Notes: generated by a model not told the origin, from the letters alone. 23,918 nucleotides of DNA from an uncultured virus (IMG/VR IMGVR_UViG_3300006916_000047) (IMGVR_UViG_3300006916_000047); one strand, 5' to 3'; counted from the first letter of the stretch, positions 4,184 through 23,169 are shown. Program-made: numbers and translations.

Positions 4184-4238
4184 AGGGGCATCTTCATAAA
4201 GAGGGTTCAGCGTAGACAAACGAGGGGAGGCGGTCAGC

Positions 4239-9182: not shown

Positions 9183-12134
9183 ATGCGCCTCTCAAACATT
9201 GAGAAGGATAAGCGTCCTTCGGAAGAGATTCTTCGTTTGTTTGAGAAAACGAGGGTGGCTTACCTTTCTGCCGCCAATGACCCCAATGAATACGGGAATC
9301 GTTGGCGTAAAACCGTGGATGTCATTATTGAGTCCTACAATGACTTGGACTCAGCCGCAAATGAAATAAAGGATTTTATTTCGGAAGACCTCATAGAAGA
9401 TAATGACATCAAAGACCCTTCCTCGCTTAAGGCAAAGGAGTTATTTGAAGCCATTAAAAATTTGCGCTATGCTTCGGATTTGGTAGATGACCCATTCGCA
9501 AAGCGTTTCAAAGGCAAGGTTTTGGAGGCATTACTTGAAAGTCCCGAACAGATGGTCAAGTTTGTGCATTATGCTTTACGAGAAGACAAGGAACCTCTTC
9601 CCAAAGAAGTTTATGCAATTAAAGACATGCAAGAAGACGATATTACCTATGGTTTAGAGGGTCTTGACCTAGAACCAGACGATATAGCCCTGTATATTAT
9701 TGAACATTACGGGGATGGAAAAGACTCCAAACGAACAGAAAGGGCTGTTAAAGCCGCTATGGAAATGTTAGACTTGTTAATGCTCTCAAAATACGATGAA
9801 GGCGACTTAGATGACCTAAAAGATATTGAGGGTGTAGAAACCCAAAGAGAGACAAAGGCTCTCTCTACAATTAAAAAGGAAAAGAAATCAGAAAAAGAAA
9901 AATCGCTGTCTGATTTTATTGTTCCAAATAAACCTATGTATAGAATTTTTGATATTGATGACATTAATCAACTAAAAGGTTTTAGTGGAGAATGGTTTGT
10001 TCAAGAAAAATACGATGGTATGAGAATTCAACTGCATAAGATTGATAATAATGTCAAGGTATTCTCTTACAATAAAAAACTTATTACAGATAAGTGCGGA
10101 GAAATTGTAAAGGAATTGAAGGCTAAACACTTTGGCGATTGCATTCTTGATGCAGAATTAATTCTTTTTGATGGGGAGGAATCCTTGCATCGGGCCGATA
10201 CAATCGCCCATGTGTTTAAAAATAAATATCCTAAAGCAACCCTCAAGTGCCATGTCTTTGACATTATGCGACATGAGAATCAAACGCTTCTTGATGAAGA
10301 GTTAGAAAACAGAATGACAATTATGTTCAACAATTATGCTCAACATTCAGCCGATGTTCTTAAATTCCCCTCAAAGAAAGATACTCGTAGAGCAGATAAT
10401 CTAAAAGATATTGCTGAATATGCAGAAAAAATTATGGAAATGCCTACTTCCGAGGGAGTCGTTATCAAAGATGCTACTTCCACCTATTATGTAGGAACAA
10501 AGAAGAACCCCAAGTGGATTAAGTGGAAGAAGTTTGTGGACTTAGATGTTGTCGTTCTTGACAAGAAGAAGACTAAAAGCAATCTATATTCTTATACCGT
10601 GGGTATTGGGCCTGTTGAGGAAGAAAACAAATTTACACAAGAAGTTAATGGCATCAAATACATGAATGTGGGTAAGGCCCTCAACACAAAAATTTCGGTT
10701 GATGTTGGTGAAATTATTCGTGTAAAGGTTGATGAGGTTAAGAATGCTGGTGATAGATATACTCTTTACTCCGCAAAGGTGATTGAAGTCCCCGAAGTAG
10801 AATACCCAGATAAAATCATCACTTTAGAATTATTAGCACAAGATACTAAAAAGTCTCTAAACTATTCTATTGAAGGATTGAAGAAAGGCATCACAATTAC
10901 TGACCATATTCACGGTACTGCTACCATTATTTGTAAATCCGATATGAGTGGATTTACTGTTTATGGTTTTGAAGAAGACAATCTCATGTCAAAGAATGCC
11001 ATCATCAATTTAGACGATTGGAAATCTCAAGCAGAAGAAATCATGAAAACAAAAGCAGGGACATTAACTACTGCTATTACAAATTATCTTCAAAACATGG
11101 GAGCAAAGACCGTAAAGCAAGTTCATAACTTCTTAATGTCAAAACATAAAGGTCTGTATGAAGATGTTGTTGATGGTGGCTTACAGGGTCTTAAAGAATG
11201 GGCAAATGCAAGAGAACATATTGAATTTAAAGAAAATAAATTGCATGGAGATGCTATCCTCAAAAGACTCTTAAAATCTCCAGTTTTAATCCATAGAGAT
11301 GCCGAGCCAGAAGAAAAGGAAATTGAGGATATTACTATTGACTATTCAAATAAAGATGGTGAATGTTGTAATAAATTAAAAGAGGCTGTTAAAACAAACA
11401 GAATACTGGTTCTTGATGTTCTTTCTGACGACTATGGCACTTATGAAAACTTTCGTAATAACATAGTAGAAGAAGAACAGAGCAATTGGGCAAAAACATA
11501 TGAAGAAGAAGTTAAGGTCATAGAAGATTCAATAGATATTTTAGAGTGTGATAGGTTATTAGGAGTGATAGATTACTTTCTCAATAATAAAGTTGGTGAT
11601 GTAGATTATGGCCCATTAGAACAAGCCTTAGAAGAATATCAAAATTGCATTCAAGGTGATTCTAGTTTTACAGACAAATATGCTATGCTTAAAGCAGAAT
11701 ATAAAACACCAGAAAAATACCGAGAAGGGCAATTTAAGTTATACTCTCGCAAAGATGACAATCTAAACATGGTGATGAAACTTGGTGATGAGACAATCAA
11801 CTGGTTAATTGATGTTCAAAACGAAGAAGAAATGTTTGACCTATTCGGAGCCGCAGGAAAGTACCCTGCTGAAGTTGCTCAAAACATTGACAGAGAAAAA
11901 ACAGTTGATGCCGGAACGGTCAAGTTAGGAATACAGAGAAACGGCTACCATGAATATTTCTTAGAAGGGAATAAGTTTGAGACGAAGTTTCATGTGCGAT
12001 ACCTGCCGGTTGGTGAAAATAAAATGTGGCTTGCTTGGACTGGCTATGAACAAAAACCCGCAGATAAAGAAGGCGATGAGGGGTTATGGGATATCTATGA
12101 GGACAAATTCGCAAGCAAGAAAATACCGAGATAA
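9183..12134 (+). CDS. lig: ATP-dependent DNA ligase with long N- and C-terminal extensions
   Basis: Nucleotidyltransferase motifs I (QEKYDGMR), III (ILDAEL), IIIa (HVFDIM), IV (EGVVIK) and V (WIKWKK), then an OB-fold-like segment. About 240 aa extra at the N-terminus and over 400 aa extra at the C-terminus. Confidence 0.9.
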   Translation: MRLSNIEKDKRPSEEILRLFEKTRVAYLSAANDPNEYGNRWRKTVDVIIESYNDLDSAANEIKDFISEDLIEDNDIKDPSSLKAKELFEAIKNLRYASDLVDDPFAKRFKGKVLEALLESPEQMVKFVHYALREDKEPLPKEVYAIKDMQEDDITYGLEGLDLEPDDIALYIIEHYGDGKDSKRTERAVKAAMEMLDLLMLSKYDEGDLDDLKDIEGVETQRETKALSTIKKEKKSEKEKSLSDFIVPNKPMYRIFDIDDINQLKGFSGEWFVQEKYDGMRIQLHKIDNNVKVFSYNKKLITDKCGEIVKELKAKHFGDCILDAELILFDGEESLHRADTIAHVFKNKYPKATLKCHVFDIMRHENQTLLDEELENRMTIMFNNYAQHSADVLKFPSKKDTRRADNLKDIAEYAEKIMEMPTSEGVVIKDATSTYYVGTKKNPKWIKWKKFVDLDVVVLDKKKTKSNLYSYTVGIGPVEEENKFTQEVNGIKYMNVGKALNTKISVDVGEIIRVKVDEVKNAGDRYTLYSAKVIEVPEVEYPDKIITLELLAQDTKKSLNYSIEGLKKGITITDHIHGTATIICKSDMSGFTVYGFEEDNLMSKNAIINLDDWKSQAEEIMKTKAGTLTTAITNYLQNMGAKTVKQVHNFLMSKHKGLYEDVVDGGLQGLKEWANAREHIEFKENKLHGDAILKRLLKSPVLIHRDAEPEEKEIEDITIDYSNKDGECCNKLKEAVKTNRILVLDVLSDDYGTYENFRNNIVEEEQSNWAKTYEEEVKVIEDSIDILECDRLLGVIDYFLNNKVGDVDYGPLEQALEEYQNCIQGDSSFTDKYAMLKAEYKTPEKYREGQFKLYSRKDDNLNMVMKLGDETINWLIDVQNEEEMFDLFGAAGKYPAEVAQNIDREKTVDAGTVKLGIQRNGYHEYFLEGNKFETKFHVRYLPVGENKMWLAWTGYEQKPADKEGDEGLWDIYEDKFASKKIPR

Positions 12135-12150: not shown

Positions 12151-12179
12151 CCAGATAACACAACGAAGGTTTGTTGGAA

Positions 12180-13382
12180 ATGTCCCTCCTACTCAAGAGA
12201 GAACAACTACAAGAGTTTCGGATTCTAAAAAGCGACAACCTAATGATTGGTGGATATGCAAGCATTGAAATTGTTGATAAGCAAAATGATTTAATCACAC
12301 TCAAAGCATTAAACGAAGCAGTAGATAAATACATGGAAAACCCAAAGTTTAGAAATGTAATGACAAATCATTCAAATGTTCAAGTCGGAGAAGTAATAAA
12401 ATCATACCGAGACAAAAGCGGAAAGTTATGGAAAACCGAAGTTGATGATGTAGGATTCTTTGTAGTAATTAAATTAAGAGACGACATAGAAAAAGCAAAG
12501 GAAATTAACCGAGGCATCAGAAAAGGTTCATTGAGGTCATTTAGTATTGGAGGACAGGCAATTCAAAAAATAAAGAAGAGTCATCCAGAATTAGGTCAAT
12601 ACAATGAAATAAGCAAATTAGAACTACACGAAATTACTATCTGCGAAAAAGGAATTAACCCCGAAGCAAAATTTGATATTTTGAAACAAGACAAAAAACA
12701 GGTGAAAAACATGAGCAAACTGGAAAAAGCACTGGAAGAGTTGGATGCACTAATGAATGAAGTGAATACTCTCCGAAAGGAAGAAGAAGAAGATATGGGC
12801 AAACTCGCTGATGAAGACGAGAAAATGATGCCTGAAAAGATGATGGACGAAAAGATGGAAGATTTGGAGTCTATGGAAACAGAAGACCCTGAAAGAGAAG
12901 CAAAGGCATATGTCTCTACTCTTGACGGTGCTGGTGTTGAAATTGGCGAACCTGCTGACAGAATCGTTATTGACAACGGAAAGCCAAGAGCAACGGATAT
13001 GCCAGTTGTTAAGGCATTTGAGAACACTGAATTGGAAACCCTTGACCTAAGCGTTGGAAACATTGAGAAGGCTTACGAGGCTTTCCGTCAAGAACAACTT
13101 GAGAAGTTGGCTTATGACAACCTCCAAAAGCAATTTGCACATCGCTTTGAGGCTGAAAAGGGAACCCGTGAGAACATCCTCGCAAAGTCCCAATACGATG
13201 CCGCTTCCGAGATTGCATCTCTTAAGGATGAATTTACCGCACTTCGCAAGTCTTTGACTTCCGAAAAGGCCCAAATCATCAAGGCTCAAGAAGAAGCCGC
13301 AATTACACTCCCATCAATGGATGAACTAGCCGAAATGGATTGGAACACGATTCATAAAATGGCTTTTGGAGGAAACCTTTGA
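12180..13382 (+). CDS. Prohead (capsid maturation) protease fused to a scaffold domain
   Basis: HK97/S78-like pattern IGGYAS..VDKQNDLI..NH..VG..SFSIGG..LHEITI..NPEA, then an acidic coiled coil. Directly upstream of the MCP. ATG 12180 is preferred over TTG 12171. Confidence 0.9.
   Translation: MSLLLKREQLQEFRILKSDNLMIGGYASIEIVDKQNDLITLKALNEAVDKYMENPKFRNVMTNHSNVQVGEVIKSYRDKSGKLWKTEVDDVGFFVVIKLRDDIEKAKEINRGIRKGSLRSFSIGGQAIQKIKKSHPELGQYNEISKLELHEITICEKGINPEAKFDILKQDKKQVKNMSKLEKALEELDALMNEVNTLRKEEEEDMGKLADEDEKMMPEKMMDEKMEDLESMETEDPEREAKAYVSTLDGAGVEIGEPADRIVIDNGKPRATDMPVVKAFENTELETLDLSVGNIEKAYEAFRQEQLEKLAYDNLQKQFAHRFEAEKGTRENILAKSQYDAASEIASLKDEFTALRKSLTSEKAQIIKAQEEAAITLPSMDELAEMDWNTIHKMAFGGNL
12711..13382 (+). 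CDS. Putative nested in-frame scaffold protein (223 aa)
   Basis: Internal AGGTGA (12700-12705) lies 5 nt before in-frame ATG 12711, at the protease/coiled-coil boundary. Confidence 0.6.
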   Translation: MSKLEKALEELDALMNEVNTLRKEEEEDMGKLADEDEKMMPEKMMDEKMEDLESMETEDPEREAKAYVSTLDGAGVEIGEPADRIVIDNGKPRATDMPVVKAFENTELETLDLSVGNIEKAYEAFRQEQLEKLAYDNLQKQFAHRFEAEKGTRENILAKSQYDAASEIASLKDEFTALRKSLTSEKAQIIKAQEEAAITLPSMDELAEMDWNTIHKMAFGGNL

Positions 13383-13391
13383 GGTGATAAC

Positions 13392-14726
13392 ATGGTAGGA
13401 TACATTAACACTATTGCAGATTTAGAAGCACAAACTTATGGACTTAACTTCAACGGAGCAAACAATATGCTCTTGAAGACCGCCGGAGCCGTTAGTGGAC
13501 TCCACGGTGGCCATGATGCCGCTACTCAAACCTCCCCAACTACTGGTATTGCTGGAAACCTTTACAATGTTCTTTTCGGACAGAAGGTTTGGTCAATGCT
13601 AAACCGTGAAGTGAACGCTCTTTCTGTTATGTCAAAGCGTCCTTATTCTTCAAGCGGTTGGAGAGTTCTTTCAAAGCGTCCTGCTGGTGGAACGGGCAAC
13701 ACCCATTCCTTTACCCAAACTGGAACGGATTTGGCTGGAACTGATGCTCCACGCCTTGACCATATCGGTGGTGTGCCAGAGAATGCTTCTCTTTCAACTT
13801 CCGGTGATGGTTTAATCGCTATTGCTCCCGAATACAGCACTCTTTTCATGAGTCCAAAAATCGTTGCTCATCAGTTTGATTTCAGCGAATTGGCTATGGA
13901 AATGGCTCAAATTGATGATGGTATCGGTGATATTAGAGCGCAAATGCGTGAAGATATGGGTAAGCATCACGCTGAATCCCAAAACCTCATGTTGATGGCT
14001 CCTCTTGAAGCATACCTTCAAGCAGATAAGACCAACGCCGCCGCAGAGATTGAGAGAAACTATACTTCGCTTTACAAGATTGTTTCGTCTAACGCTGAGT
14101 TAGACCAAATGGACGCAGATAACTTCCCTGTTTCTTCAATTACCAACGACATTTCGGAAGCATACCACATTTACGGAACCAACCGTGATAGTGCTTCTTT
14201 CCTTGATTGTGTCGTTAATGGTGCAAGCAGTTATGCTTCGGGTGGTTCTCGGCCATTTACTTTGAGCATTCTCAACGCAACGCTTCGTGAATTGCGACAG
14301 AACGGTGGCTCTCCAAAGGTTATTCTTACTGGATATGACACCCTTCAAACGCTTTCCGACCTCTTGCAGAGCCAAGAGCGATTTATGGACAGAAAGGAAA
14401 TTGTGCCAACCGTGAACGGTGTTCGTGGTGTTAAGGGTGCAGAAGTTGGTTTCCGTGTGGCAACCTACTACGACATTCCTTTGATTCCAGTTGCTCAAAT
14501 GCAAAGCACTTCGGCTGATTCGGGAACCATTTCGGATATGCTCTTATTGGACACTGACCACCTTTGGATGGCTGTTATGAAACCAACTCAATACTTTGAA
14601 GATGGTATTAGCAACGGAAACCCATTCGGCGTCGGACAACTCGGCAACCGAGCATTGTACCGAACAATTGCTGAAATGGGCTGTTCGTACTTCAAGGGTC
14701 AAGGCAAAATTACCAACCTTAAGTGA
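13392..14726 (+). CDS. Major capsid protein (HK97 fold)
   Basis: 444 aa, follows the protease/scaffold, strong GAGGTGA RBS. C-terminal pattern (..ATYYDIPLIP..MLLLDTDHL..GQGKITNL) is typical of HK97-fold capsids. Confidence 0.88.
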   Translation: MVGYINTIADLEAQTYGLNFNGANNMLLKTAGAVSGLHGGHDAATQTSPTTGIAGNLYNVLFGQKVWSMLNREVNALSVMSKRPYSSSGWRVLSKRPAGGTGNTHSFTQTGTDLAGTDAPRLDHIGGVPENASLSTSGDGLIAIAPEYSTLFMSPKIVAHQFDFSELAMEMAQIDDGIGDIRAQMREDMGKHHAESQNLMLMAPLEAYLQADKTNAAAEIERNYTSLYKIVSSNAELDQMDADNFPVSSITNDISEAYHIYGTNRDSASFLDCVVNGASSYASGGSRPFTLSILNATLRELRQNGGSPKVILTGYDTLQTLSDLLQSQERFMDRKEIVPTVNGVRGVKGAEVGFRVATYYDIPLIPVAQMQSTSADSGTISDMLLLDTDHLWMAVMKPTQYFEDGISNGNPFGVGQLGNRALYRTIAEMGCSYFKGQGKITNLK

Positions 14727-14736
14727 GGTGTTTTAG

Positions 14737-15099
14737 TTGGCACTTATCAAAGCAATTACGGTCTTAGCAGACCATAAAGGTATGACAACACCTAGAGTTT
14801 CGGGAGACGAATATTTCGTGGATGCAGTTATTGATATTAGCCAAGTCGTTGCGGCTGGTTCAGTGATTCCTGCCTCCGATTTTGGTCTTAACACCATTAC
14901 TGCGGTTATGATTACAGGAGACGACAATCCTAACAACAGCACGAATGACATCGCTATCAAAGTAGAATGCAGTGCTACTGGTGCTTATGAATCAGCGACT
15001 TCGGTTGCTTTTATGCATACAACAATGGCTAGTGGAACAACGCTTTCTAACGATGCTAACGGCGGAAGTGTTCGTGTTCGTGTTTATGGAAACCTTTGA
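14737..15099 (+). CDS. Probable capsid decoration / minor structural protein
   Basis: 120 aa, beta-rich, directly after the MCP; TTG start after TGAGGTG. Confidence 0.55.
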   Translation: MALIKAITVLADHKGMTTPRVSGDEYFVDAVIDISQVVAAGSVIPASDFGLNTITAVMITGDDNPNNSTNDIAIKVECSATGAYESATSVAFMHTTMASGTTLSNDANGGSVRVRVYGNL

Positions 15100-15108
15100 G
15101 GTGTTAAT

Positions 15109-15432
15109 TTGGCTCTAGTCAAATTTTCTTCCCAATCAAATGTGGGGAGATTAGAAACACCTTTTGGTTTGCTCCGAACAAATGCAGAGTTAGAAGTGGG
15201 AACAGAATGGGCTATTGCTAAAATTGGCGATAGAAACCTTATGTTCACTTTCGTTGAGTCCGATAGAGAAGCCTTAGCAGAAACTACTGAAAAACAGTTA
15301 GTAATTTTGCGAAAGCAACTTGAAGAAGACCTTTCCGATGCTTCTGCGCTTTGTGGCCTATTACTCCCTAAAGCAAAGAAGACTCTTAAGAAGAAGACTA
15401 CCAAAAAGGCTTCTTCTGCGCTAAAGGAGTAG
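15109..15432 (+). CDS. Hypothetical protein with Lys-rich C-terminal tail
   Basis: 107 aa; TTG start after TGAGGTG; ends KAKKTLKKKTTKKASSALKE. Confidence 0.65.
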   Translation: MALVKFSSQSNVGRLETPFGLLRTNAELEVGTEWAIAKIGDRNLMFTFVESDREALAETTEKQLVILRKQLEEDLSDASALCGLLLPKAKKTLKKKTTKKASSALKE

Positions 15433-15436
15433 GCGG

Positions 15437-15450
15437 AAAGCCTAAATATA
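15437..15450 (+). promoter_or_regulatory. Putative BRE/TATA promoter for the downstream membrane/GTPase operon
   Basis: GAAAGCC-TAAATATA: purine-rich BRE-like bases then an AT-rich box, ending 31 nt before ATG 15481. Nearly the same spacing as at 12143. Confidence 0.5.
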
Positions 15451-15480
15451 GCCCCCGCAAGTGGGGAATGAAGAGAGGTT

Positions 15481-15816: not shown

Positions 15817-16203
15817 ATGGCGGCTCTTAATCAAGACACTCGCTTAGTTATGACAATTCTTTTTGTCGGGGCATTGAGTGGAGCAAATGTATATGCTTAT
15901 GCTATGATTGGTCTAGGGTTTCCTTATGGGCCTTTAGCCCACTCAATATTATTTGGCCTTGGAACAATAGGAGCAATCATGGTTGTTAAAGCCCTCTTTG
16001 ACTTATCCTTAAATGATAAAATTGAGATGTGGCTTCTTGATAGAAAGATTGCGGCATACTGGGAAAGAAAGGCTAGAGACGAGCAACAAAAACAAAAAAT
16101 GCGAGAAAGTGCAAAACAGTTTTCAGTTCCATTTGCCTACTCTCAACCTGTTGAACAGGAAGAAAATACTCTTGGGACGGAATTCTTAGCCACACTACAA
16201 TGA
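15817..16203 (+). CDS. Membrane protein, 2 predicted TM helices plus cytoplasmic coiled coil
   Basis: Hydrophobic stretches LVMTILFVGALSGANVYAYAMI and ILFGLGTIGAIMVVKALF; charged C-terminus; TGAGGTGAT RBS. Confidence 0.75.
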   Translation: MAALNQDTRLVMTILFVGALSGANVYAYAMIGLGFPYGPLAHSILFGLGTIGAIMVVKALFDLSLNDKIEMWLLDRKIAAYWERKARDEQQKQKMRESAKQFSVPFAYSQPVEQEENTLGTEFLATLQ

Positions 16204-16212
16204 GGTGGTTAA

Positions 16213-16431
16213 GTGGTCTTTGGAGATTTGATGGGCTTTTCCGATTCGGATTACGCTTACAATGCTCAAAGAGCGCACTCTGCTGACATTTTCTTTTTGA
16301 AAATGAGAGCCGTTTTTTGGGGCTTTTGTGCCTGTCTTTCGGGTTTTCTTATTGGAAACATTCTTGGTGTTTTTGATATAAACATCATGGGTTTCCTGTT
16401 TGACACTTTGTTAAACGGGTGGGGGCATTGA
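16213..16431 (+). CDS. Small membrane protein
   Basis: 72 aa; hydrophobic AVFWGFCACLSGFLIGNILGVF; GTG start after TGAGGTGG. Confidence 0.7.
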   Translation: MVFGDLMGFSDSDYAYNAQRAHSADIFFLKMRAVFWGFCACLSGFLIGNILGVFDINIMGFLFDTLLNGWGH

Positions 16432-16432
16432 T

Positions 16433-16936
16433 ATGTGGAAAGAAATATTGAAGGCTCCTGTAAGGACTAGGAATGAGGTTTTCTTTCAAGATAAGCCCAA
16501 AAAATATAGAAGTAAATTTTTAGATTCGGGAGAGGAATTTGAGATTTTAGATGATGTGGGAAGTAGAATCACAGACTCAAAATTTGAAGGTTTAAGAGCA
16601 TGGGAATCCGAAGATAAAATGGCTAGAGGGACATTTAGAAAAGTTTCCAAATCTAAAAAAGGCCCACTTTGGCACATTGACGCATTTTCCGTAAATAAAA
16701 AATTAATGAATCAAGGCAAAGGAGAAGAATACCTTAGAGAAATGGTCAATGATTTGAAAGAAATAGAGGATTTGAAAATATATGGGCAACCTGTTCATAG
16801 AGCAGTATCATTTTGGAAGAGAATGAAAAGAAAGGGGATTGTGGATTTTGTTTTGCCACCCATTAATATGTATAGAGATGTGAGCGGAGGTTCAGTATTA
16901 AGGCCGCCAACTAGAGATTTAACAAGGCGTGGTTAA
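16433..16936 (+). CDS. GNAT-family acetyltransferase-like protein with N-terminal MWKEILKA tag
   Basis: HIDAFSVNKKLMNQGKGEEYL resembles GNAT motif A (acetyl-CoA-binding QGxG); AVSFWKRM resembles motif B. Confidence 0.7.
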   Translation: MWKEILKAPVRTRNEVFFQDKPKKYRSKFLDSGEEFEILDDVGSRITDSKFEGLRAWESEDKMARGTFRKVSKSKKGPLWHIDAFSVNKKLMNQGKGEEYLREMVNDLKEIEDLKIYGQPVHRAVSFWKRMKRKGIVDFVLPPINMYRDVSGGSVLRPPTRDLTRRG

Positions 16937-16938
16937 AA

Positions 16939-17607
16939 ATGTCCCTAATGACGGGCTTTGCTATTTTAGTTGGTGAAGCAATTATAGGATTCTACAAAAA
17001 AATTCATGCGATTAACTTCGGAGTTTATGGTGCAACAATGGTTGGAAAAACAACACTCAGTCATCAATTAAGAACAAGAGGAGAAGTGCCACAGATTAAT
17101 CAAAGAACAGTTGGCAAACATAGAGCATCAAGAAAGAATATTAAAATTGATGGAAACTCACACACAGTAAGAAGCGCAGATATTGGAGGAGAAGCAATTT
17201 ACTGGAAAGAATGGGAAAAGGATATGAAAGAACGCCGAGTCAAATATGTTATATTTATGATTGACCATAGGCATTTAGATAGCACTTCAAATTTAGACCA
17301 CCAATTAGCATGGAAATTTTTAATAGATACAATCATTTCAAACACATGGTCAAATGGCAAAAAGAAAAAAGACTCTGATTTTCCAATGGCAGTAGGTATT
17401 TGGGCAAATAAATATGATATATGGGGAAAGAAATATCCACTAGCAGAAGGGCAACAGATAGACAAACATGAAATATTTGAACCGTTTGCATACGGAATGA
17501 GAAAACTTAACGACAAAGGAATACCTTGTTTTAAATATATTGTATCAGCAAAGTCGGAACCCGAAATGGTTTATAGAGGAATTACCACGATGATAAAGGA
17601 TTACTGA
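16939..17607 (+). CDS. Ras-superfamily small GTPase, Arf/Sar1-like features
   Basis: G1 GATMVGKTT, G2 RTVG, G3 DIGGE, beta4 VIFMID, G4 NKYD and G5 SAK, in the right order and spacing; hydrophobic/amphipathic N-terminal helix. Confidence 0.88.
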   Translation: MSLMTGFAILVGEAIIGFYKKIHAINFGVYGATMVGKTTLSHQLRTRGEVPQINQRTVGKHRASRKNIKIDGNSHTVRSADIGGEAIYWKEWEKDMKERRVKYVIFMIDHRHLDSTSNLDHQLAWKFLIDTIISNTWSNGKKKKDSDFPMAVGIWANKYDIWGKKYPLAEGQQIDKHEIFEPFAYGMRKLNDKGIPCFKYIVSAKSEPEMVYRGITTMIKDY

Positions 17608-17612
17608 TTATT

Positions 17613-18152
17613 ATGTGGAAAAATATCTTGAAGGAACGCATTGTGCGAGACGGTAAAGAAATTGAATTTTCTAGGGAAATTTATCATGCTAGAACGGAAG
17701 AACAAATGTTAGACAATATTCGCAAACGCTTGAATGAAGTAGAGAAAAAACACCCAGTAATTGCAGACATTATTTCCCAAATATTAGAGTTAGAAGAAAA
17801 AAAGACCCTTTCCACTAAAAGAGCCTTTCAATCAATAGTCGCTATGTTAATTGAGATTGATATGAGAATTCATGTCTTTCCCCGCCGTAAAAAGAGAGCA
17901 AATTGGGACGATATAAACCCCATAGAAGAAGTACAAGAAATTGTTGCTATTCAAAACCTTATTGAGTCAGCAGGTTTGTTAGAAAAACACCCAAGAGAAA
18001 AGGAGTTGGTTTTAAGCCAAATTAAGTTAATGCGGAAAAGAGGGATAACTTCAACAGAAGCGCTTTCTGTAATTAAACCTCTTTTGAGAAAATTAAAAAT
18101 TAAGATTGTAAATAGAAAGGGAAGACTTAGAGCATGGAAATATAGGGAGTGA
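17613..18152 (+). CDS. Hypothetical helical protein with N-terminal MWKNILKE tag
   Basis: 179 aa; basic C-terminus that could be winged-helix-like (weak). Confidence 0.7.
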   Translation: MWKNILKERIVRDGKEIEFSREIYHARTEEQMLDNIRKRLNEVEKKHPVIADIISQILELEEKKTLSTKRAFQSIVAMLIEIDMRIHVFPRRKKRANWDDINPIEEVQEIVAIQNLIESAGLLEKHPREKELVLSQIKLMRKRGITSTEALSVIKPLLRKLKIKIVNRKGRLRAWKYRE

Positions 18153-18156
18153 TTAA

Positions 18157-18810
18157 ATGTATCAACAACAAATTATAGGACAAAACGCACCAACGGCATT
18201 CAACCCAATGTTGAATCCAATTGAACAGGCAAGAACGGCAGGTAATGTAATAGAATACCAGTTTATGAATATTAAACCAAAGAAGAAAGAAAAAGAATTA
18301 ATTAAAGTTCTTTCTCCTGAACCAAAGTCCTTTCTTTTCTTCAAGTTCGGAAAGAAATTTAATCTCAAAGACCGTTGCGTAGTCTGCGGAATGCACCATA
18401 TTTGGGAATCGGGCGACCATTTAAGACCGCCTATTCCCTTAGAAAAAGTGAAGAAGGGACGACCCCTTAGAGGAACATACTGCCCTAAACACGCATCAAT
18501 GTTTAAACAATTAGAAATGCTTGAGCAACAAATTCTTGCTGAGAAACATGGCTTAGACTTCAAGGCATTCAAGCCAAGGATGCCGAAAGCCCTTTCGGGA
18601 AAACCCACTACTCACCTAAGCAAAACCGAAGTGGCCTCACTCACGGCGGCAGGTTATTTTATTAAACCACCCACTCTACAAGATAACAGGTCGGCCACGA
18701 ATGAGGCCATAGAGTTGGTCGGGCAAATTAATATTTTGACGGATAGATTAAACTACTTGATGATTCAAAACGGAGTTAAAGCACCAGAACAACTTGAAAA
18801 GGAGGAATAA
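18157..18810 (+). CDS. Zn-finger-like protein with C-terminal coiled coil
   Basis: CVVC..HH and CPKH clusters; C-terminal heptads (IELVGQINILTDRLNYL). Confidence 0.7.
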   Translation: MYQQQIIGQNAPTAFNPMLNPIEQARTAGNVIEYQFMNIKPKKKEKELIKVLSPEPKSFLFFKFGKKFNLKDRCVVCGMHHIWESGDHLRPPIPLEKVKKGRPLRGTYCPKHASMFKQLEMLEQQILAEKHGLDFKAFKPRMPKALSGKPTTHLSKTEVASLTAAGYFIKPPTLQDNRSATNEAIELVGQINILTDRLNYLMIQNGVKAPEQLEKEE

Positions 18811-18812
18811 AT

Positions 18813-19463
18813 ATGGGATTTTTAGGAACAAGTAATGGAACTGTTTTAGGAGCAGTTCAAGCACAGAACGACCAGCAGTTTAAGAATGTAAATAATTTAC
18901 TTTCTTTGCAGGATAACCATGTAGAAGAATTTTTCCAATACCATGGCGAAATGTTTTTGGCCGCACTAGAACAATTGATGGAAGATGTCGTTCAAAGAAC
19001 AGTCTCGGATATGTTGGGCAAATTGTCTTTTACAAATAATGGCGGTAATATGACGGTTAATCCAGATACTCTTATGGAGTACCAAAAAATCACACAAGAA
19101 AATATTGATTTAGACATTCAAAAAATTCTTGGGGCGGCAATCAATACCGAAGTCATCATGCAAAGAAAAATGGCAAAACAGCAATACCTTGAATCTCAAG
19201 GCTTTGGTGGGGGACAACCACAACAACCCTCCGCAGGTATGGCTGTGGCAGGGCTAACGGGAAATACTCAACAATACCAACAGATGCAGGGAGCCGTGAA
19301 CAATGGTTCCGGCTACCCTATTCCTCCAACTGGAACAGATGGCTACGGAAGGCCTTATTGGGTTGATGCTCAAGGGCAAATGTCATATGAGCCGCCATCA
19401 AGTGGGCTTCATTTAGGTGCGGCAATCCAAAAAGGTGCGGCTTGGGCTAAATGGTTAATGTGA
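18813..19463 (+). CDS. Helical protein with Q/G-rich linker, WW-like motif and amphipathic C-terminal helix
   Basis: AGGAGG RBS; GGGQPQQP and QQYQQMQG low-complexity region; GRPYWVD..MSYEPP; ends LGAAIQKGAAWAKWLM. Confidence 0.7.
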   Translation: MGFLGTSNGTVLGAVQAQNDQQFKNVNNLLSLQDNHVEEFFQYHGEMFLAALEQLMEDVVQRTVSDMLGKLSFTNNGGNMTVNPDTLMEYQKITQENIDLDIQKILGAAINTEVIMQRKMAKQQYLESQGFGGGQPQQPSAGMAVAGLTGNTQQYQQMQGAVNNGSGYPIPPTGTDGYGRPYWVDAQGQMSYEPPSSGLHLGAAIQKGAAWAKWLM

Positions 19464-19473
19464 GGCGTTTAAC

Positions 19474-21057
19474 ATGGAATATGGCATTTCTTGGATTGGG
19501 GGCGGAAGCCAAATTATGCCCAGAGATAGAGATGTTGTTAAACAAAGCATTGAAAGGTACATTCTTGCGGATTCAAAGGAACACAATACTTTGAGTCCTC
19601 AAATGTATGATACTCTTGATACTTTATTTGATGATTTAGAACAGGAAGAAGGCGAAGATTTTAAGCGAGTTCTTGCCGAGATTGTTCAAGAAATTATCAA
19701 TGATAAAGAAATTTCTTACGATTTCTACAAGAGCGATAATTACGCTTGGTCGCAATACTTGAGGGGTGGCGGAAATGAAAAGGCAAGAGAAGCGTTGCGT
19801 GTTGCCTTGGATAACTACGCCAGAGAAACCACTCTTTATGAAGTATATACTGGTTCAAATGACTATCAAAGAATGAAAGGATATTCTATGTTTAAATTTG
19901 GCAGGGATATGGAAAATCTACCCGAATTTGCTTTAGAACGATTCTTAAGAGAAAACCCACTTACAGTTAAGGCAGATAAGCCGCCTTATGTTTTAGAGGT
20001 TAAAATAAAGAAAAAAGACACAACTAAAAAAACTATGAGTTTTGCAGTAGAATATAACAAATACGCAAAGGAACGGCTTAAGGGCATAGAAAACTCTAAA
20101 GAACTCTATGGTAAAATGAAAAAAGAACAACTTCTTAATTTATATAATGAATCTCTTGAAGGCGACGGTTTAATGGGAGTTGGACAAAGAACCATGACAA
20201 AACCACAACTAGTAGAAGAATTATCAAATAGAGAGAATAGCCTCACTAGAAATCCAGTATTTTCAAAGCAAATAGGAAAGGCATTGACTTTATCGTTTAA
20301 GTTAGTTCCCGAAGATGCAAGGGATAAACCCACTTTATATTATTCTCTTGAAAATAATCCCAGAGGAATACTACAAGCATCGGAAAACTTGGCTCAAGCA
20401 TTTTTAGATGCGAAAGAAAAGCAAATCAAATCCAGAGGGGTTTTTTCTGGTGGGTTCTTAGCAACAACAGACTTAAAGTGGACAGAGGGAAAAACAGTAG
20501 AATTGAAAGATTTCAAGGGGGCAGTTTCTTTACTTGCTAAAACCACAAGTGGGCAACAAAAGCCGATTCTTTCTTTTACCTTTGAAGACATGATACCGGA
20601 GGATTTTTTGTCCAGTGATAAGGAAGAAGAAGTGTATTACTATAAAGTAGGGATAGATGAAATAATGGAGTCATTAAAAGATGAACCAGATGTTATTAAA
20701 ATGCTACAAGGTTCCTTTGAATTAATTGATACTGTTTCAGTCAATAAAGTAGAATTAAAACTTTCTTTTCCCTCTCTTGCGAAATTAGTAGATGATGACA
20801 TAAAAATATCAAGGGCTGGTGGAGATTTTGCGTATAAAATGAGAGGCTTAACAGAACAATTAAAGAGAATAAAAGCCGACCTTATTCCTTTTGGGGCATT
20901 AAAGGCTGAGTATGATTCAGGCCCATATGCCTCTGGTGGTCAATACATTTCAGCAGAGATGGCTAATCATATTGATTTAATGAAAGAGCGATTAGAAGAC
21001 CTTGCAGATTTTGGTGTTGAGATTAAAGGCCAAGTAGATAACATGGAGGAAGATTAA
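19474..21057 (+). CDS. Large hypothetical protein with possible internal HeH/Rho-N-like motif
   Basis: 527 aa after TGAGGCG; contains LYGKMKKEQLL..G..MTKPQLVEEL. Confidence 0.7.
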   Translation: MEYGISWIGGGSQIMPRDRDVVKQSIERYILADSKEHNTLSPQMYDTLDTLFDDLEQEEGEDFKRVLAEIVQEIINDKEISYDFYKSDNYAWSQYLRGGGNEKAREALRVALDNYARETTLYEVYTGSNDYQRMKGYSMFKFGRDMENLPEFALERFLRENPLTVKADKPPYVLEVKIKKKDTTKKTMSFAVEYNKYAKERLKGIENSKELYGKMKKEQLLNLYNESLEGDGLMGVGQRTMTKPQLVEELSNRENSLTRNPVFSKQIGKALTLSFKLVPEDARDKPTLYYSLENNPRGILQASENLAQAFLDAKEKQIKSRGVFSGGFLATTDLKWTEGKTVELKDFKGAVSLLAKTTSGQQKPILSFTFEDMIPEDFLSSDKEEEVYYYKVGIDEIMESLKDEPDVIKMLQGSFELIDTVSVNKVELKLSFPSLAKLVDDDIKISRAGGDFAYKMRGLTEQLKRIKADLIPFGALKAEYDSGPYASGGQYISAEMANHIDLMKERLEDLADFGVEIKGQVDNMEED

Positions 21058-22382
21058 TGTCTATCATCTCATCGCCTAGTGATTACTCTAATTCCTATCA
21101 TACTGGTTCGGGTGTAGCACAATCTTATGAAACTGGATATGGTTTTTATACAGATTTTAAAGCAGTTGCTCATTTACTTCAAGTGCCAGAATTTGGCAAT
21201 ACTACTTACCCAACTGTTAAACAGGTTGGAGAAATTATTAAAAGAATTGAAGGTACAGTAGATGATAAACTCAAAAGAAGTTATAGACCAATAATTACTA
21301 AAAAAGAAATACATAACTTTGAATTTAGAAATCATCCAGGCCAAACTCTTTATGGTGGTTATGTTGGGTTTATTCAACTAAGGCAGATGAAAGTTCGCAA
21401 AATTGTTTCTTTGTTGGTTTGGGAAGGAAGTCAATATAAGGAAATTGCATCTGCTCAAGCAAAAATACAACTACATGATGGTTTTAGAGATATGCATTCT
21501 ATTATTTTGGAACTGCCAAATAATGGAGTTTCTTTTGAACTTGTTGCAGAAAATACCATTAGTGATTTGGCTCGTGCTGAATTTTGTAATACCTTTGGGA
21601 TTAAAACTACCGCAAGTGAAATTTCTTCATTAGTAAATGAAGACTTTCCATCAACAGCGCAATATACTGGAGCAACTTCTCCTAAACGCCTTACTTCTTC
21701 TAATTTATCCCTTTCGGACTTTTTCTTTGCCCAAAAGGAGGAAGGAAATGGCGGGACTGTCCTCATCTCATCCCTACTTTCGGGAGATGACGGGGCTGAT
21801 TGTGTCATCAAAGCCACCATAAAACAAACCTGCACAACGGTAAATACGAACACTTCCATAACAGTTGCAGACTCAAGCAAACTTAAGGTTGGGATGACCG
21901 TAAGCGGAACAGGTATCACGGGAACAACTTCTACTATCACTTCTATCACGGACTCAACAAATGTTGTTCTTTCTGCGGCGGCAAGTGGGAGTGGCACAAA
22001 TGTTCTTACATTTACAACCACCGATGAAATTCCAGAAGTCTGCACTCTAAGTTCCTTTACGGACAAAGATAACATGAAACGAGATGGAAGTTATTGGCTA
22101 TTAAATGAGGAGGGTCGGATTTTCTTCTTACAAGATTACCCCTACCATACGCGAAACTCTGTTCTTGTTTCTTACATCGCTGGAAATGCAAGGGTTCCCG
22201 CCGCAGTTCACGAAGCCGCTACGAAATTAGTTGCGGCAGAAATTATTCGGCATGATGACCAAAGTATTCTTATTGCTGAAACAGGAGCAAATATTTCAAC
22301 AAAAGAAAAGTATGATATTCTCAAGAAAGAAGCGATGGATATTCTCAAAGGCAAATCCGATATTGTCTATTTTATTGATTAG
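21057..22382 (+). CDS. Head-tail adaptor (connector) with large internal insertion
   Basis: N-terminal helices (VAHLL..VGEIIKRIEGTVD) and C-terminal VSYIAG..VPAAVHEAATKLVAAEII fit gp15/gp6-type adaptors; T/S-rich beta insert in the middle. Confidence 0.7.
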   Translation: MSIISSPSDYSNSYHTGSGVAQSYETGYGFYTDFKAVAHLLQVPEFGNTTYPTVKQVGEIIKRIEGTVDDKLKRSYRPIITKKEIHNFEFRNHPGQTLYGGYVGFIQLRQMKVRKIVSLLVWEGSQYKEIASAQAKIQLHDGFRDMHSIILELPNNGVSFELVAENTISDLARAEFCNTFGIKTTASEISSLVNEDFPSTAQYTGATSPKRLTSSNLSLSDFFFAQKEEGNGGTVLISSLLSGDDGADCVIKATIKQTCTTVNTNTSITVADSSKLKVGMTVSGTGITGTTSTITSITDSTNVVLSAAASGSGTNVLTFTTTDEIPEVCTLSSFTDKDNMKRDGSYWLLNEEGRIFFLQDYPYHTRNSVLVSYIAGNARVPAAVHEAATKLVAAEIIRHDDQSILIAETGANISTKEKYDILKKEAMDILKGKSDIVYFID

Positions 22383-22390
22383 GTGATAGT

Positions 22391-22951
22391 ATGTGGAAAG
22401 ATGTTATTAGAAAAAGTCGTTATAAGATGCCTGATGAAGAAAAGGTTTTTGCAGAGATTGACAGGATTGTTGATTACTATGAAGGTAGGCTCCATGCAGA
22501 GATTAGAAGTGCGGCTATGAGAATATACGAAAGAGATAGTCCCTATACCGGAGACGGGTTTATATTAGATACAATTAAGAAGGGGAATGTTCAGGTTGAG
22601 GCTTTGGGATTAGAATATAGAGACTCTAATCGGAGAGAGGAAGATGATAATTTAGTAGAATATCAATTTTATTATGTTGACCCACATTCTAGCGGCTATG
22701 ATAAAATTAAAATTAATTCTGTAGTAATTTACGGTAAGAATGAAAAACAAGGCAATAGCAAAATTACAAACTATCCCGATGTTGAAGATTACGATTCAAG
22801 AAAGTTCAAAAGAAGTGCCAAAGGTTATGCTAGAAATAAAGCCATGATGATGGAACCTCCAGAAGAAGAAGGATTACAGCAATACAAAAAGTATGCAGAT
22901 ATAACAGAAGATTTGATGGAAAACATCGTAAGGGATATTATGGGGTTGTGA
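22391..22951 (+). CDS. Hypothetical protein with N-terminal MWKDVIRKS tag
   Basis: 186 aa; TAGGTGAT RBS. Confidence 0.7.
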   Translation: MWKDVIRKSRYKMPDEEKVFAEIDRIVDYYEGRLHAEIRSAAMRIYERDSPYTGDGFILDTIKKGNVQVEALGLEYRDSNRREEDDNLVEYQFYYVDPHSSGYDKIKINSVVIYGKNEKQGNSKITNYPDVEDYDSRKFKRSAKGYARNKAMMMEPPEEEGLQQYKKYADITEDLMENIVRDIMGL

Positions 22952-22953
22952 AT

Positions 22954-23169
22954 ATGTGGGAAGATATTTTAAAAAGAGTGGACAATAACTACGACAGATT
23001 AGAAAGTGCTATTGAAGATGCAATAGATGAAGCAGAAAATACAAAGAAACCCCAATATATCAAAGAGAGCGATGATGGGACATACTTTATAGACAGTAAA
23101 AAACAAAGATATTATGGCGATTACATAGTAGCAATTGTTAATGCCGATGGCAAAGTAGAAAGAAAGTGA
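22954..23169 (+). CDS. Small hypothetical protein with N-terminal MWEDILKR tag
   Basis: ORF 22948..23169; ATG 22954 chosen by analogy with the other tagged ORFs. Confidence 0.65.
   Translation: MWEDILKRVDNNYDRLESAIEDAIDEAENTKKPQYIKESDDGTYFIDSKKQRYYGDYIVAIVNADGKVERK

Follow-up and report, generated by a model that had tools for sequence, protein, structure and literature searches.

Gene content and genomic setting

The window analysed here, 23,918 nt of DNA from an uncultured virus (IMGVR_UViG_3300006916_000047), represents a magrovirus head-to-neck module. The host is likely to belong to Marine Group II (Poseidoniales), which are abundant archaea of the ocean, rather than to the haloarchaea. 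Within the window is a run of seven ORFs, all on the + strand and separated by 1–10 nt, encoding two membrane proteins (A and B), a small GTPase, a Cys/His protein, a Q/G-rich protein and two interrupting genes (W1 and W2). The capsid gene expected upstream of this run is present at 13392–14726; its product matches Pfam SU10_MCP (E 3.5e-7) and the PHROG major head protein (E 1.5e-24), and is 24% identical to the major capsid protein (MCP) of HCTV-1. Neck genes had been predicted downstream. These are suggested by weak matches of the C-terminus of one ORF, o21057, to HCTV-1 gp117 (E 1.35e-4) and to phrog_17057, a family without known function, and this assignment is at best tentative. No lysis enzyme family was matched among the 33 window ORFs scanned, in agreement with the earlier statement that the window has no recognisable endolysin.

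The only intergenic gap of more than 10 nt in the run is at 15433–15480 (+ strand), 5' of o15481, and contains TAAATATA with a GC hairpin (CCCC-GCAAG-TGGGG) behind it. This had been read as a TATA-like promoter of the five genes. The site precedes o15481 and not gene A, and of the 54 distinct sequences from upstream of o15481 only 4 retain a strict TATA pattern, which weakens this reading. In related viruses, the gap upstream of o15481 keeps TTAAGA or TTAATA and a GAGGG..CCCTC hairpin. A weak promoter and an RNA stem-loop are both conceivable here.

Membrane proteins A and B

Gene A (15817..16203, + strand, 128 aa) encodes a predicted membrane hairpin with an FPYGP loop, a strong hydrophobic segment at residues 43–61 and a weaker one at 10–35. 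The hairpin is followed by a highly conserved charged helix (approximately residues 62–100) and an acidic C-terminal motif, EENTxGxEFLATLQ. Two transmembrane segments had originally been proposed for this protein, in line with these two hydrophobic stretches. No Pfam, PHROG, NCBIfam or PADLOC family matches gene A. Gene B (16213..16431, + strand, 72 aa) has a GTG start and an in-frame ATG at 16231. Its polar N-terminus (GFSDSDYAYNxQRAHSAD) is conserved, as are N49, D55 and D64, and its one hydrophobic segment (residues 33–63) fits the small transmembrane protein expected.

Small membrane proteins within a late morphogenetic block are also a feature of holin-endolysin cassettes, and in phage P2 such a cassette is placed between the head and tail genes. 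The locus described here is unlike these in having no endolysin, in the strong conservation of A and B, and in the presence of a GTPase. Gene B scores 18.5 bits against NCBIfam holin_4, where the cut-off is 70. With this score and the absence of lysis enzymes among the scanned ORFs, a holin-endolysin cassette is not supported. The conservation of A and B is far above that of typical holins, which favours a stable complex over a simple pore former.

The small GTPase

The GTPase (16939..17607, + strand, 222 aa) has all five G motifs, as had been predicted. G1 (17029–17052) is G31-ATMV-G36-K37-T38, a GxxxxGK[ST] P-loop; G2 is T57 (17107–17109); G3 (17179–17193) is DIGGE, D81-IGG-E85; G4 (17407–17418) is N157-KYD160; and G5 (17545–17553) is S203-AK205. 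The motifs are invariant in 19 out of 19 aligned relatives, and G1 and G4 are found in all unique sequences of both the near lineage (61/61) and a divergent lineage (74/74). The fifth residue of G3, where the catalytic Gln would stand, is Glu throughout the near lineage (61/61 sequences). Among the 74 divergent sequences it is Gln in 47, Glu in 14, Asp in 6 and His in 3, with 4 unmatched. Glu in place of the catalytic Gln makes intrinsic hydrolysis by the window GTPase uncertain.

An N-terminal hydrophobic helix is predicted at residues 3–22 (nt 16945–17004), and residues 1–19 pass the hydrophobic-segment threshold. Mean hydrophobicity (0.54–0.69) and hydrophobic moment (0.19–0.30) are closer to those of an anchor than to those of an amphipathic helix; moments of up to 0.4–0.5 are reached in divergent relatives. 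Helix 3–22 has a pLDDT below 50 in the AF2 model, which has a Ras-like order of strands and helices, a mean pLDDT of 66 and poorly modelled switch regions. This model was matched by Foldseek to Rab33, G-alpha and KRas at E ~1e-7, and by VIA-align to Arl-, ArfR- and G-alpha-type chains at Z 12–13.

On its own, the window protein does not reach the cut-offs of Pfam MMR_HSR1 (19.0 bits against 21.9) or TIGR00231 (20.3 bits against 42.5), and does not match Pfam PF00025 (Arf) at E <= 0.01; significance is reached by the family profiles only. The strict profile, A3, has the Asgard ArfR structure 8oun_A as its best match (E 7.1e-8), with Arl8A (4e-5), KRas (1.9e-4) and Rab33B (3e-4) further down. 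The broad profile, A2, matches miniGq (2.3e-13), 8oun_A (2.3e-12), Arl3 (1.8e-11), SAR1a (3e-11) and NRas (7e-9), and its alignment with SAR1 is full-length, including the N-terminus (~1e-10). By profile, the nearest solved relatives are members of the Arf family. Distant members score against PF00025 (P0159 27.2 bits, cut-off 22.3; P0169 57.2 bits) and against Pfam SRPRB (P0194 26.2 bits, cut-off 25; P0188 24.7). The JGI name of P0194 is 'signal recognition particle receptor subunit beta'. The Arf/Sar likeness originally noted is thus upheld by the family profiles (8oun_A, SAR1) and by fold comparison.

Of nine module genes, that of the GTPase evolves most slowly. Pairwise divergence (250 random pairs, 43 loci) is 0.133 for the GTPase, 0.181 for the Q/G-rich protein, 0.199 for A, 0.235 for the MCP and 0.239 for B. 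The protein is a small GTPase of the Arf/Sar type that is under strong constraint and carries a hydrophobic helix at its N-terminus. A family search gave 78 matches in 1.84 billion representatives, all of 280 aa or less. Relatives are absent from cellular genomes, except for two contigs that are probably misbinned, and none is present in 50,697 phage records, including those of HCTV-1 and HVTV-1. As judged from these sequences, the family is virus-only and deeply divergent.

The Cys/His and Q/G-rich proteins

The Cys/His protein (18157..18810, + strand, 217 aa) has a Q-rich N-terminus, a helical C-terminal half and a conserved core, rCVVxG...GRxLxGTYCPxH. It had been described as a Zn-finger/coiled-coil protein. 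C74, C109 and H112 are kept across the family, but C77 is not, and the protein matches no Pfam zinc-finger and no other Pfam or PDB entry; conservation of the proposed Zn-finger is thus partial. The AF2 model is unusable (pLDDT 51). It has a homologue in the divergent lineage, where the corresponding gene comes after that of the GTPase (hhalign probability 96.5%, E 8.6e-10).

The Q/G-rich protein (18813..19463, + strand, 216 aa) begins with MGFLG and ends with GAAWAKWLM. A conserved helical core at approximately residues 39–129, containing ITQENID, is followed by a Q/G-rich low-complexity region. The C-terminal helix was expected to be amphipathic, but its hydrophobic moment is low (0.27) and the GAAWAKWLM end is limited to the near lineage, so this feature is weak. 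The PDB and Atlas gave no lead. A link to the divergent lineage is provided by the protein from locus L165 (HMM E 4e-6; hhalign E 3.8e-4).

Conservation of gene order and the passenger genes

The order A-B-GTPase-Cys/His-Q/G is unchanged in 80 related contigs, as far as each contig reaches. A and B are each present at 79 of these loci, the GTPase at 80, the Cys/His protein at 75 (counted by tblastn) and the Q/G-rich protein at 71; the missing genes are explained by contig ends in every case. Inserts are confined to two junctions, with none between o15481 and A (0/78), A and B (0/79), or the Cys/His and Q/G-rich genes (0/65). The order is therefore constant and the interruptions are variable, as expected of a contiguous five-gene unit once the two interrupting genes are set aside.

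These two genes are W1 (16433..16936, + strand, 167 aa), with an MWKEILK tag, at the B/GTPase junction, and W2 (17613..18152, + strand, 179 aa), with an MWKNILK tag, at the GTPase/Cys/His junction. W1 is present at 3 of the 80 loci and W2 at 2. Two loci that are 100% identical to the window, L001 and L002, are among the carriers, and both W2 loci have this identity. The first junction is occupied at 11 of 78 loci and the second at 16 of 71, by MW-tagged ORFs every time; all 24 unique ORFs inserted in relatives start with an MWxxILK-type tag. In a contig from an RNA library, position 16393 is joined to 16938 and W1 is missing. W1 and W2 are rare passenger inserts outside the cassette, as the original prediction had it.

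The tagged accessory genes at two of its junctions, the predicted membrane location of its proteins and their being viral genes of no known family would suit a superinfection exclusion or anti-defence device, which at the membrane would block the entry of competitors or counter host systems. Genes with such roles tend to be variable and non-essential; the cassette here is near-universal and contains the slowest-evolving of the nine genes compared. No PADLOC family was matched, save for a chance-level match to Cas13c (E 0.0087). A role in exclusion or anti-defence is therefore considered very unlikely.

The divergent lineage and the relation to head genes

In the divergent lineage, the GTPase is found at 84/84 loci. 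A homologue of the Cys/His protein, recognised at 40/84 loci by HMM and at 45/84 by phmmer, follows it together with a Q-rich protein. At four of these loci, a protein with one transmembrane segment precedes the GTPase in 4/4, and the small protein that also precedes it is hydrophobic enough to span the membrane in 3/4. Homology of A and B across the lineages is not detectable, and the divergent membrane proteins are analogous. In the complete genomes G002, G004 and G005, the block is ~8 kb upstream of TerL and 21–23 kb from the MCP gene. This indicates an autonomous cassette that is part of neither head nor neck. The block shifts as a whole with respect to the head genes, and the GTPase is co-inherited with the Cys/His and Q-rich proteins and with two small membrane proteins. 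Head or neck structural proteins were rejected as an explanation, given this distance from the MCP gene and the absence of any PHROGs family for A, B, the GTPase, the Cys/His protein or the Q/G-rich protein (0 families).

In both lineages, the cassette keeps to the same strand and the same side as the morphogenetic block, and this position fits a role in virion assembly equally. The five proteins might be a membrane-anchored, GTP-dependent platform for assembly or maturation of the head, neck or tail, or might chaperone the hypervariable protein encoded next to them, and could be non-structural or minor virion components. The window cassette is embedded between the MCP and an adaptor-like gene, the divergent one, on the same strand as the packaging and head block, lies immediately 5' of it, and the conservation of the cassette equals that of the protease and MCP. 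HCTV-1 gp116 is also a transmembrane-plus-helix protein at the position of A; however, its similarity to A is not significant (E 0.26), and no structural family of PHROG or Pfam was matched. The GTPase is missing from HCTV-1 and HVTV-1, which indicates that these Druskaviridae, with the same head module, assemble without it. Tailed-virus assembly is not known to require membranes. On balance, a morphogenesis factor is rather unlikely.

Ejection or pilot proteins, packaged in the capsid and forming a channel in the membrane through which DNA is delivered in the following infection, would also be membrane proteins in this setting, as the ejection proteins of some phages contain transmembrane segments and are encoded inside structural modules. 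The divergent cassette is outside the head and neck genes, and to our knowledge there is no precedent for a packaged small GTPase, making this reading extremely improbable.

Comparison with cellular and viral GTPase systems

The viral GTPase shares with Arf, Arl, Sar1 and Asgard ArfR (GerdArfR1, 8OUN/8OUM) its small size, an N-terminal hydrophobic helix ahead of strand 1, a DxGG-type G3 with W at +11 after it, NKxD and SAK. Fold comparison gives Z 12.4–12.6 with GerdArfR1, Arl1 and Arl8b, but identity with the Arf family is ~15–17% and the Pfam Arf cut-off is not reached. It differs further in the Glu for catalytic Gln, an insert of ~20 residues before G4, an IDHRH motif and a helix that is more hydrophobic than amphipathic, and it comes from a tailed virus of a non-Asgard host. 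SR-beta, a GTPase of the Arf clade, is anchored in the membrane through a hydrophobic helix at its N-terminus, as is predicted here; distant family members match SRPRB, the window GTPase does not, and no SR-alpha-like partner is present. The Rab-type GTPases of giant eukaryotic viruses are likewise virus-encoded members of the Ras superfamily. They are close copies of host Rab genes, whereas the GTPase described here is deeply divergent and found only in viruses.

Outside Asgard archaea, ArfR is reported from Korarchaeia only (bioRxiv 10.1101/2024.02.28.582541). A parallel in gene arrangement is ArvA-ArvB-ArvC (OapABC) of Haloferax volcanii and other archaea. According to PMC10927574, vesicle formation in Haloferax is driven by ArvA, an Arf-like GTPase whose N-terminal helix is amphipathic; its operon has a Zn-ribbon protein downstream, and ArvC is proposed as a GAP. 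A role in membrane vesiculation has thereby been demonstrated in a euryarchaeon. The likeness to the viral GTPase is one of description, and the Cys-containing protein 3' of the GTPase, of Zn type in ArvABC, parallels the Cys/His protein by analogy only. ArvABC has no counterpart of the two membrane proteins or the Q-rich protein of the viral cassette. DUF2073 (ArvB) was not matched by the seven ORFs of the run or by five cassette proteins of the divergent locus L086, DUF2072 (the ArvC Zn-ribbon) by 0 of 23 Cys/His family members at E <= 1, and no ArvA- or OapA-specific NCBIfam model by 20 GTPase family members.

This parallel raises the possibility of a viral counterpart of ArvA-type vesiculation, in which the host membrane is manipulated without lysis. 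Vesicle formation or membrane proliferation might be driven or redirected in the course of infection, for instance to make decoy vesicles, shed receptors or provide compartments in which replication or assembly takes place. An Arf/Sar-like GTPase with an N-terminal helix, directly followed in both lineages by a Cys/His protein, resembles the Haloferax pair of ArvA and Zn-ribbon protein that controls vesicle output (PMC10927574). Against this are the DUF2072 and DUF2073 results, and tailed viruses have no envelope, so that vesiculation has no obvious role in virion production. This alternative is on the whole unlikely.

Proposed role of the cassette

No description of such a cassette was found in the searchable literature. 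It is a candidate for virus action on, or exit through, the host membrane. The five genes may be an autonomous viral cassette, expressed together with the late morphogenetic genes, that encodes a device switched by GTP and sited at the cytoplasmic side of that membrane. The membrane hairpin A and the small protein B would anchor or activate the GTPase, and in the GTP-bound form its N-terminal helix would engage the membrane. The Cys/His and Q/G-rich proteins would have effector or regulator roles, a suggestion based on analogy to ArvC and its proposed GAP function. The outcome would be local deformation or rupture of the membrane, freeing virions from a host without a murein wall. The broader claim, of a device that is switched by GTP and acts on the host membrane, has a somewhat better than even chance of being correct; that it breaches the membrane for virion release or lysis is given a probability of roughly 0.35.

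The players in egress of head-tailed archaeal viruses are called 'completely uncharacterized' in the review PMC10791045. It is tentatively suggested, with less confidence than for the release reading above, that the missing release system of these viruses may be a GTP-timed membrane-rupture machine, in which the virus-only Arf/Sar-type GTPase, docked on two dedicated membrane proteins, would deform and break the host membrane. If this is true, a switch of the vesicle-coat type would have the role that falls to holins in phages.

Genome setting and host

The long ORFs of the window are densely packed and all lie on the + strand. By Pfam and PHROGs, these include TerL (761–2188, +), the portal (4239–5885, +), an ATP-dependent ligase fusion (9183–12134, +), the prohead protease (12171–13382, +) and an HK97-type MCP (13392–14726, +). 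The MCP shares 23–24% identity with the MCPs of the Haloarcula viruses HCTV-1, HVTV-1 and HCTV-5; a search of 50,697 phage records, 8 of which matched, returned nothing beyond those Haloarcula virus MCPs. A ligase within the structural module is described as a magrovirus hallmark (PMC5434244), and a GTPase homologue that is 79% identical (P0072) carries the NCBI label hypothetical protein, with 'Poseidoniales virus YSH_150918' as its source. Based on the module genes, the MCP matches, the in-module ligase and the name of P0072, the window represents a magrovirus morphogenetic module. Magroviruses are tailed viruses whose assigned hosts are Marine Group II archaea. In the surface ocean they are reported to rank with the most abundant viruses of archaea (PMC5434244).

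Order of the cassette in near relatives

The run of seven ORFs is present as originally described, with spacing of 1–10 nt. Five of these are the cassette genes, starting at 15817 (A), 16213 (B), 16939 (GTPase), 18157 (Cys/His protein) and 18813 (Q/G-rich protein), and two are interrupting ORFs, W1 (16433–16936) and W2 (17613–18152). A scan of IMG/VR gave 289 pattern matches, corresponding to 278 GTPase-encoding stretches, of which the best 80 were kept as loci (81–100% identity). Conserved synteny, the check put forward with the original prediction, was found by tblastn in every one of these loci, the shared order being protease-MCP-o14737-(o15109)-o15481-A-B-GTPase-Cys/His-Q/G-(variable ORF)-o21057-o23174-o23365, where o-numbers are ORFs by start coordinate. 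Among these best 80 of 278, tblastn detects A and B in 79 each, the GTPase in 80, Cys/His in 75 and Q/G in 71, and all of the missing cassette genes are accounted for by contig ends. Because the flanking genes are equally syntenic, near-lineage synteny cannot separate a unit from a conserved head-neck block.

A single large ORF (377–861 aa; 19474–21057 in the window) is always present between the Q/G gene and o21057 in 46 loci. Its N-terminus is semi-conserved (M..F.WG..LS.P type) and the remainder is hypervariable, such that the window copy as a tblastn query is detectable in only 9 of the 80 loci (best 80 of 278). The product may be a virion protein that is exposed and subject to diversifying pressure. 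In o21057 (21057–22382; compare 14532–15203 of locus L081), the C-terminal ~100 residues match HCTV-1 gp117 (E 1.35e-4) and also phrog_17057, and the N-terminal 330 residues, including a T/S-rich stretch, are without counterpart. The protein may thus be adaptor-like, with an extra domain attached.

The two interrupting genes are indeed passengers, W1 being present in 3 and W2 in 2 of the best 80 of 278 loci; two of the loci bearing them are 100% identical to the window. Inserts are confined to the B|GTPase (11/78) and GTPase|Cys/His (16/71) junctions and are absent from o15481|A (0/78), A|B (0/79) and Cys/His|Q/G (0/65). All 24 unique inserted ORFs start with a tag of the MW[KFWE]x[IV][IL]K type, the rest of each protein being unrelated. 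There are four window ORFs that start MW[KE][EDN][IV][LI][KR] (16433–16936, 17613–18152, 22391–22951 and 22954–23169), and the DNA-level form of the window tag is ATGTGGAAAGAnATnTTnAA. The MW tag appears to be either a signal for insertion or recombination shared by magrovirus accessory genes, or an N-terminal function common to them.

Intergenic element and RNA data

A TATA-like promoter had been placed upstream of the cassette; the sole gap of more than 10 nt (15433–15480) is instead 5' of o15481, not of A. This gap contains TAAATATA and a GC hairpin. Across the homologous gaps of the near relatives, the hexamer is A/T-rich (TAAATA, TTAAGA or TTAATA) and a GC-rich hairpin comes after it, the element being positioned 35–45 nt before the o15481 start codon and after the MCP-proximal small genes. 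Only 4 of 54 distinct gap sequences contain a strict TATA pattern. The element could act as a promoter, or form a stem-loop in the RNA that sets transcript levels after the capsid genes. In four metatranscriptome runs, 5–8% of sampled words were present. Contigs from RNA libraries cover parts of the MCP, A, GTPase and Cys/His|Q/G junction of relatives; these are no measure of transcription, strand or level, and the uncovered parts carry no meaning.

An Arf/Sar-like GTPase

All five G motifs reported from the sequence are found in the protein encoded from 16939: G1 (G31xxxxGKT38), T57, G3 (D81-IGG-E85), G4 (N157-KYD) and G5 (S203-AK), with no variation in any of the 19 aligned relatives (70–92% identity). 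On its own the window protein falls under curated cut-offs, scoring 19.0 against 21.9 bits for MMR_HSR1 and 20.3 against 42.5 for TIGR00231. Its AF2 model (mean pLDDT 66) has the Ras-like order of strands and helices with an N-terminal helix at 3–22, and Foldseek matches this to Rab33, G-alpha and KRas at E about 1e-7. With VIA-align there is a tie at Z 12–13 between 9edt_G (a tubulin-cofactor-complex chain), G-alpha, GerdArfR1-GTP (Z 12.6, rmsd 3.5 across 159 residues), Gtr, Arl1 and Arl8b.

A strict family profile of 12 clear relatives has 8oun_A as its best match (E 7.1e-8), with Arl8A at 4e-5, KRas at 1.9e-4 and Rab33B at 3e-4. The broader profile finds miniGq, 8oun_A, Arl3 and SAR1a/b at 1e-13 to 1e-10, with SAR1 aligned from residue 1. 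The source of 8OUN is the preprint 'Arf family GTPases are present in Asgard archaea'. Pfam Arf matches 8 of the 23 GTPase family members (best E 1.9e-15), the window protein not being among these 8. Some homologues carry the automatic JGI name 'GTPase SAR1 family protein', and ten distant relatives, traced through their clusters, led to short contigs from metagenomes and to two automatic names.

The G3 pattern of Arf/Sar proteins is DxGG[QH]-x6-W. That of the window GTPase, D-I-G-G-E-x6-W, parallels it, as is visible in the 8oun_A alignment. The catalytic position is Glu in 61 of 61 near-lineage sequences; in 74 sequences of the divergent lineage, that is, viruses with the more distant GTPases dealt with below, it is Gln in 47, Glu in 14, Asp in 6 and His in 3, with 4 unmatched. 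Taking the profile, fold, cut-off and G3 results together, the GTPase is therefore called Arf/Sar-like, and is not filed as a proven member of the Arf family.

Constraint and distribution

In 250 random pairs from the 43 loci with nine module genes, mean protein divergence is lowest in the GTPase, at 0.133, although these loci were picked by similarity to the window GTPase, which may favour it somewhat. It is followed by Q/G (0.181), the protease (0.198), A (0.199), the MCP (0.235), B (0.239), o21057 (0.277), Cys/His (0.288) and o15481 (0.425).

The GTPase has no tblastn match in the 50,697 phage records. A pattern scan of cellular genomes, covering 185,579 prokaryote species with one genome per species, yielded only L166 and L167. 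These loci lie on short contigs, 12.2 and 28.9 kb long, from a single 'Maricaulis sp.' MAG, and their GTPase identities are 83% and 63%. L166 agrees with the viral locus L058 in length and range. Both are probably misbinned virus, contaminating a bacterial bin. For P0169, the nearest Arf-positive protein, the search for relatives returned P0169 alone.

Membrane proteins and soluble partners

Hydropathy identifies one strong (43–61) and one weaker (10–35) hydrophobic segment in A, one in B (33–63) and one at the GTPase N-terminus (1–19); none is present in the other 20 window proteins tested. The match of A to HCTV-1 gp116 is not significant (E 0.26).

The Cys/His protein had been described as a Zn finger. 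C74, C109 and H112 are conserved family-wide, but C77 is not, and there is no Pfam zinc-finger match. Its AF2 model has a pLDDT of 51 and a pTM of 0.26, a quality too low for fold comparison. Prediction of its complex with the GTPase, GTP and Mg scored 0.00 against a mark of 0.32; as the fold of the Cys/His protein is uncertain, this score speaks neither for nor against an interaction. For the Q/G protein, the proposed amphipathic C-terminal helix is weak, with a hydrophobic moment of only 0.27, and the GAAWAKWLM end is found in the near lineage only. Searched against PDB sequences, the Cys/His and Q/G profiles gave nothing beyond one chance-level row (E 0.02), and in the ESM Atlas the Q/G protein has unnamed clusters only, at the chance level of 0.80–0.81.

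The divergent lineage

When 1.84 billion representatives were searched exhaustively with a profile, only 78 GTPase proteins reached E <= 1e-3, all <=280 aa. The possibility that the GTPase is a fragment, or part of a fusion, was rejected on the lack of any match >280 aa in this search. Full-length distant members, such as P0133 and P0136, have 27–35% identity, and members of these types share the N-terminal hydrophobic helix, DxGG[QHE], an IDHRH motif and NKxD. Of 130 matched viral stretches, 127 carry a P0133-type gene; for P0136-type genes the count is 4 of 6. No P0132-type GTPase turned up in viral contigs.

Window-family HMMs identify the GTPase in 84/84 kept divergent loci and Q/G in 1/84. 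The ORF directly downstream of the GTPase is a Cys/His homologue in 40/84 by HMM and 45/84 by phmmer, and the remaining window proteins have no HMM match in these loci. Homology of Cys/His across the lineages is evident from profile-profile comparison (probability 96.5%, E 8.6e-10). For Q/G, a profile-profile E of 3.8e-4, against 0.1–0.6 for controls, and a bridging sequence in locus L165 suggest the same.

The divergent order is a 1-TM protein (170–240 aa), a small TM protein (78–100 aa), the GTPase, an optional small insert, Cys/His (256–348 aa), a Q-rich protein (190–227 aa) and a small 2-TM protein. The first of these against A is not significant, and the second against B gives E 0.008 over the TM stretch only. 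As homology is undetectable, the analogy of the divergent membrane proteins to A and B is one of position and architecture alone. Inserts also occur at the GTPase|Cys/His junction in this lineage, as small ORFs of 54–108 aa; one of 59 aa (L128, 7727–7906) begins MIRK, not MW. In L165, a thermosome-type chaperonin gene (3820–5481; Cpn60_TCP1, E 1.7e-140) is located two ORFs (~1.5 kb) upstream of the GTPase gene.

Three complete divergent genomes measure 103–118 kb. In one the GTPase is at about 15.8 kb, with TerL at 24.2, the portal at 27.2 and the MCP at 39.1 kb; the corresponding positions are about 56.2, 64.6, 67.6 and 77.4 kb in the second and about 72.1, 79.7, 83.8 and 93.3 kb in the third. 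In these viruses some 8 kb separate the cassette from the packaging genes downstream of it, and in the window the cassette is between the MCP-proximal genes and the adaptor-like gene. Its position differs between the lineages and it therefore moves as a block, rather than being a positional component of the head-neck array.

Possible function of the cassette

The cassette is a co-inherited, movable block linked to late genes, made up of a constrained Arf/Sar-like GTPase whose N-terminal helix is hydrophobic, membrane proteins and two orphan soluble proteins. Virion release is the favoured reading of its function, at roughly one chance in three. It is favoured because hosts of this class lack a murein wall, the 33 window ORFs scanned include no recognisable lysis enzyme, and a 2024 review describes the players in the egress of head-tailed archaeal viruses as completely uncharacterized (PMC10791045). 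On a positive-inside reading, A would be a hairpin with both ends cytoplasmic, displaying a conserved charged helix and an acidic tail, and B would display a conserved polar N-terminus. Together A and B may dock or activate the GTPase at the membrane, with the Cys/His and Q/G proteins as regulator or effector, and the outcome would be membrane deformation or rupture. A and B are far too conserved for a simple holin model. A role in assembly is fitted equally well by the linkage of the cassette to morphogenetic genes.

ArvA (OapA), an Arf-like GTPase of Haloferax volcanii, is the closest functional precedent. It has an amphipathic helix at its N-terminus, and extracellular vesicles are abolished when ArvA is deleted (PMC10927574). 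In its operon are also ArvB (DUF2073) and ArvC (DUF2072), the latter a Zn-ribbon protein and proposed GAP whose loss increases vesicle output (PMC10927574). In contrast to ArvABC, no cassette protein matches DUF2072 or DUF2073. Among the searchable papers, none treats magroviruses and a GTPase together. The main texts of PMC5434244 and PMC11706807 do not contain 'GTP', though their supplements could list the gene, and among the matches listed for magrovirus literature mentioning GTP there is GTP cyclohydrolase only.

The cassette is conserved and virus-confined, and contains a type of switch that deforms membranes in eukaryotes and in Haloferax. It is a concrete five-gene candidate for egress that can be expressed and assayed without host culture. 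With it, the range of Arf-like GTPases comes to include viruses of an archaeal lineage outside Asgard, which bears on the history of this protein family.
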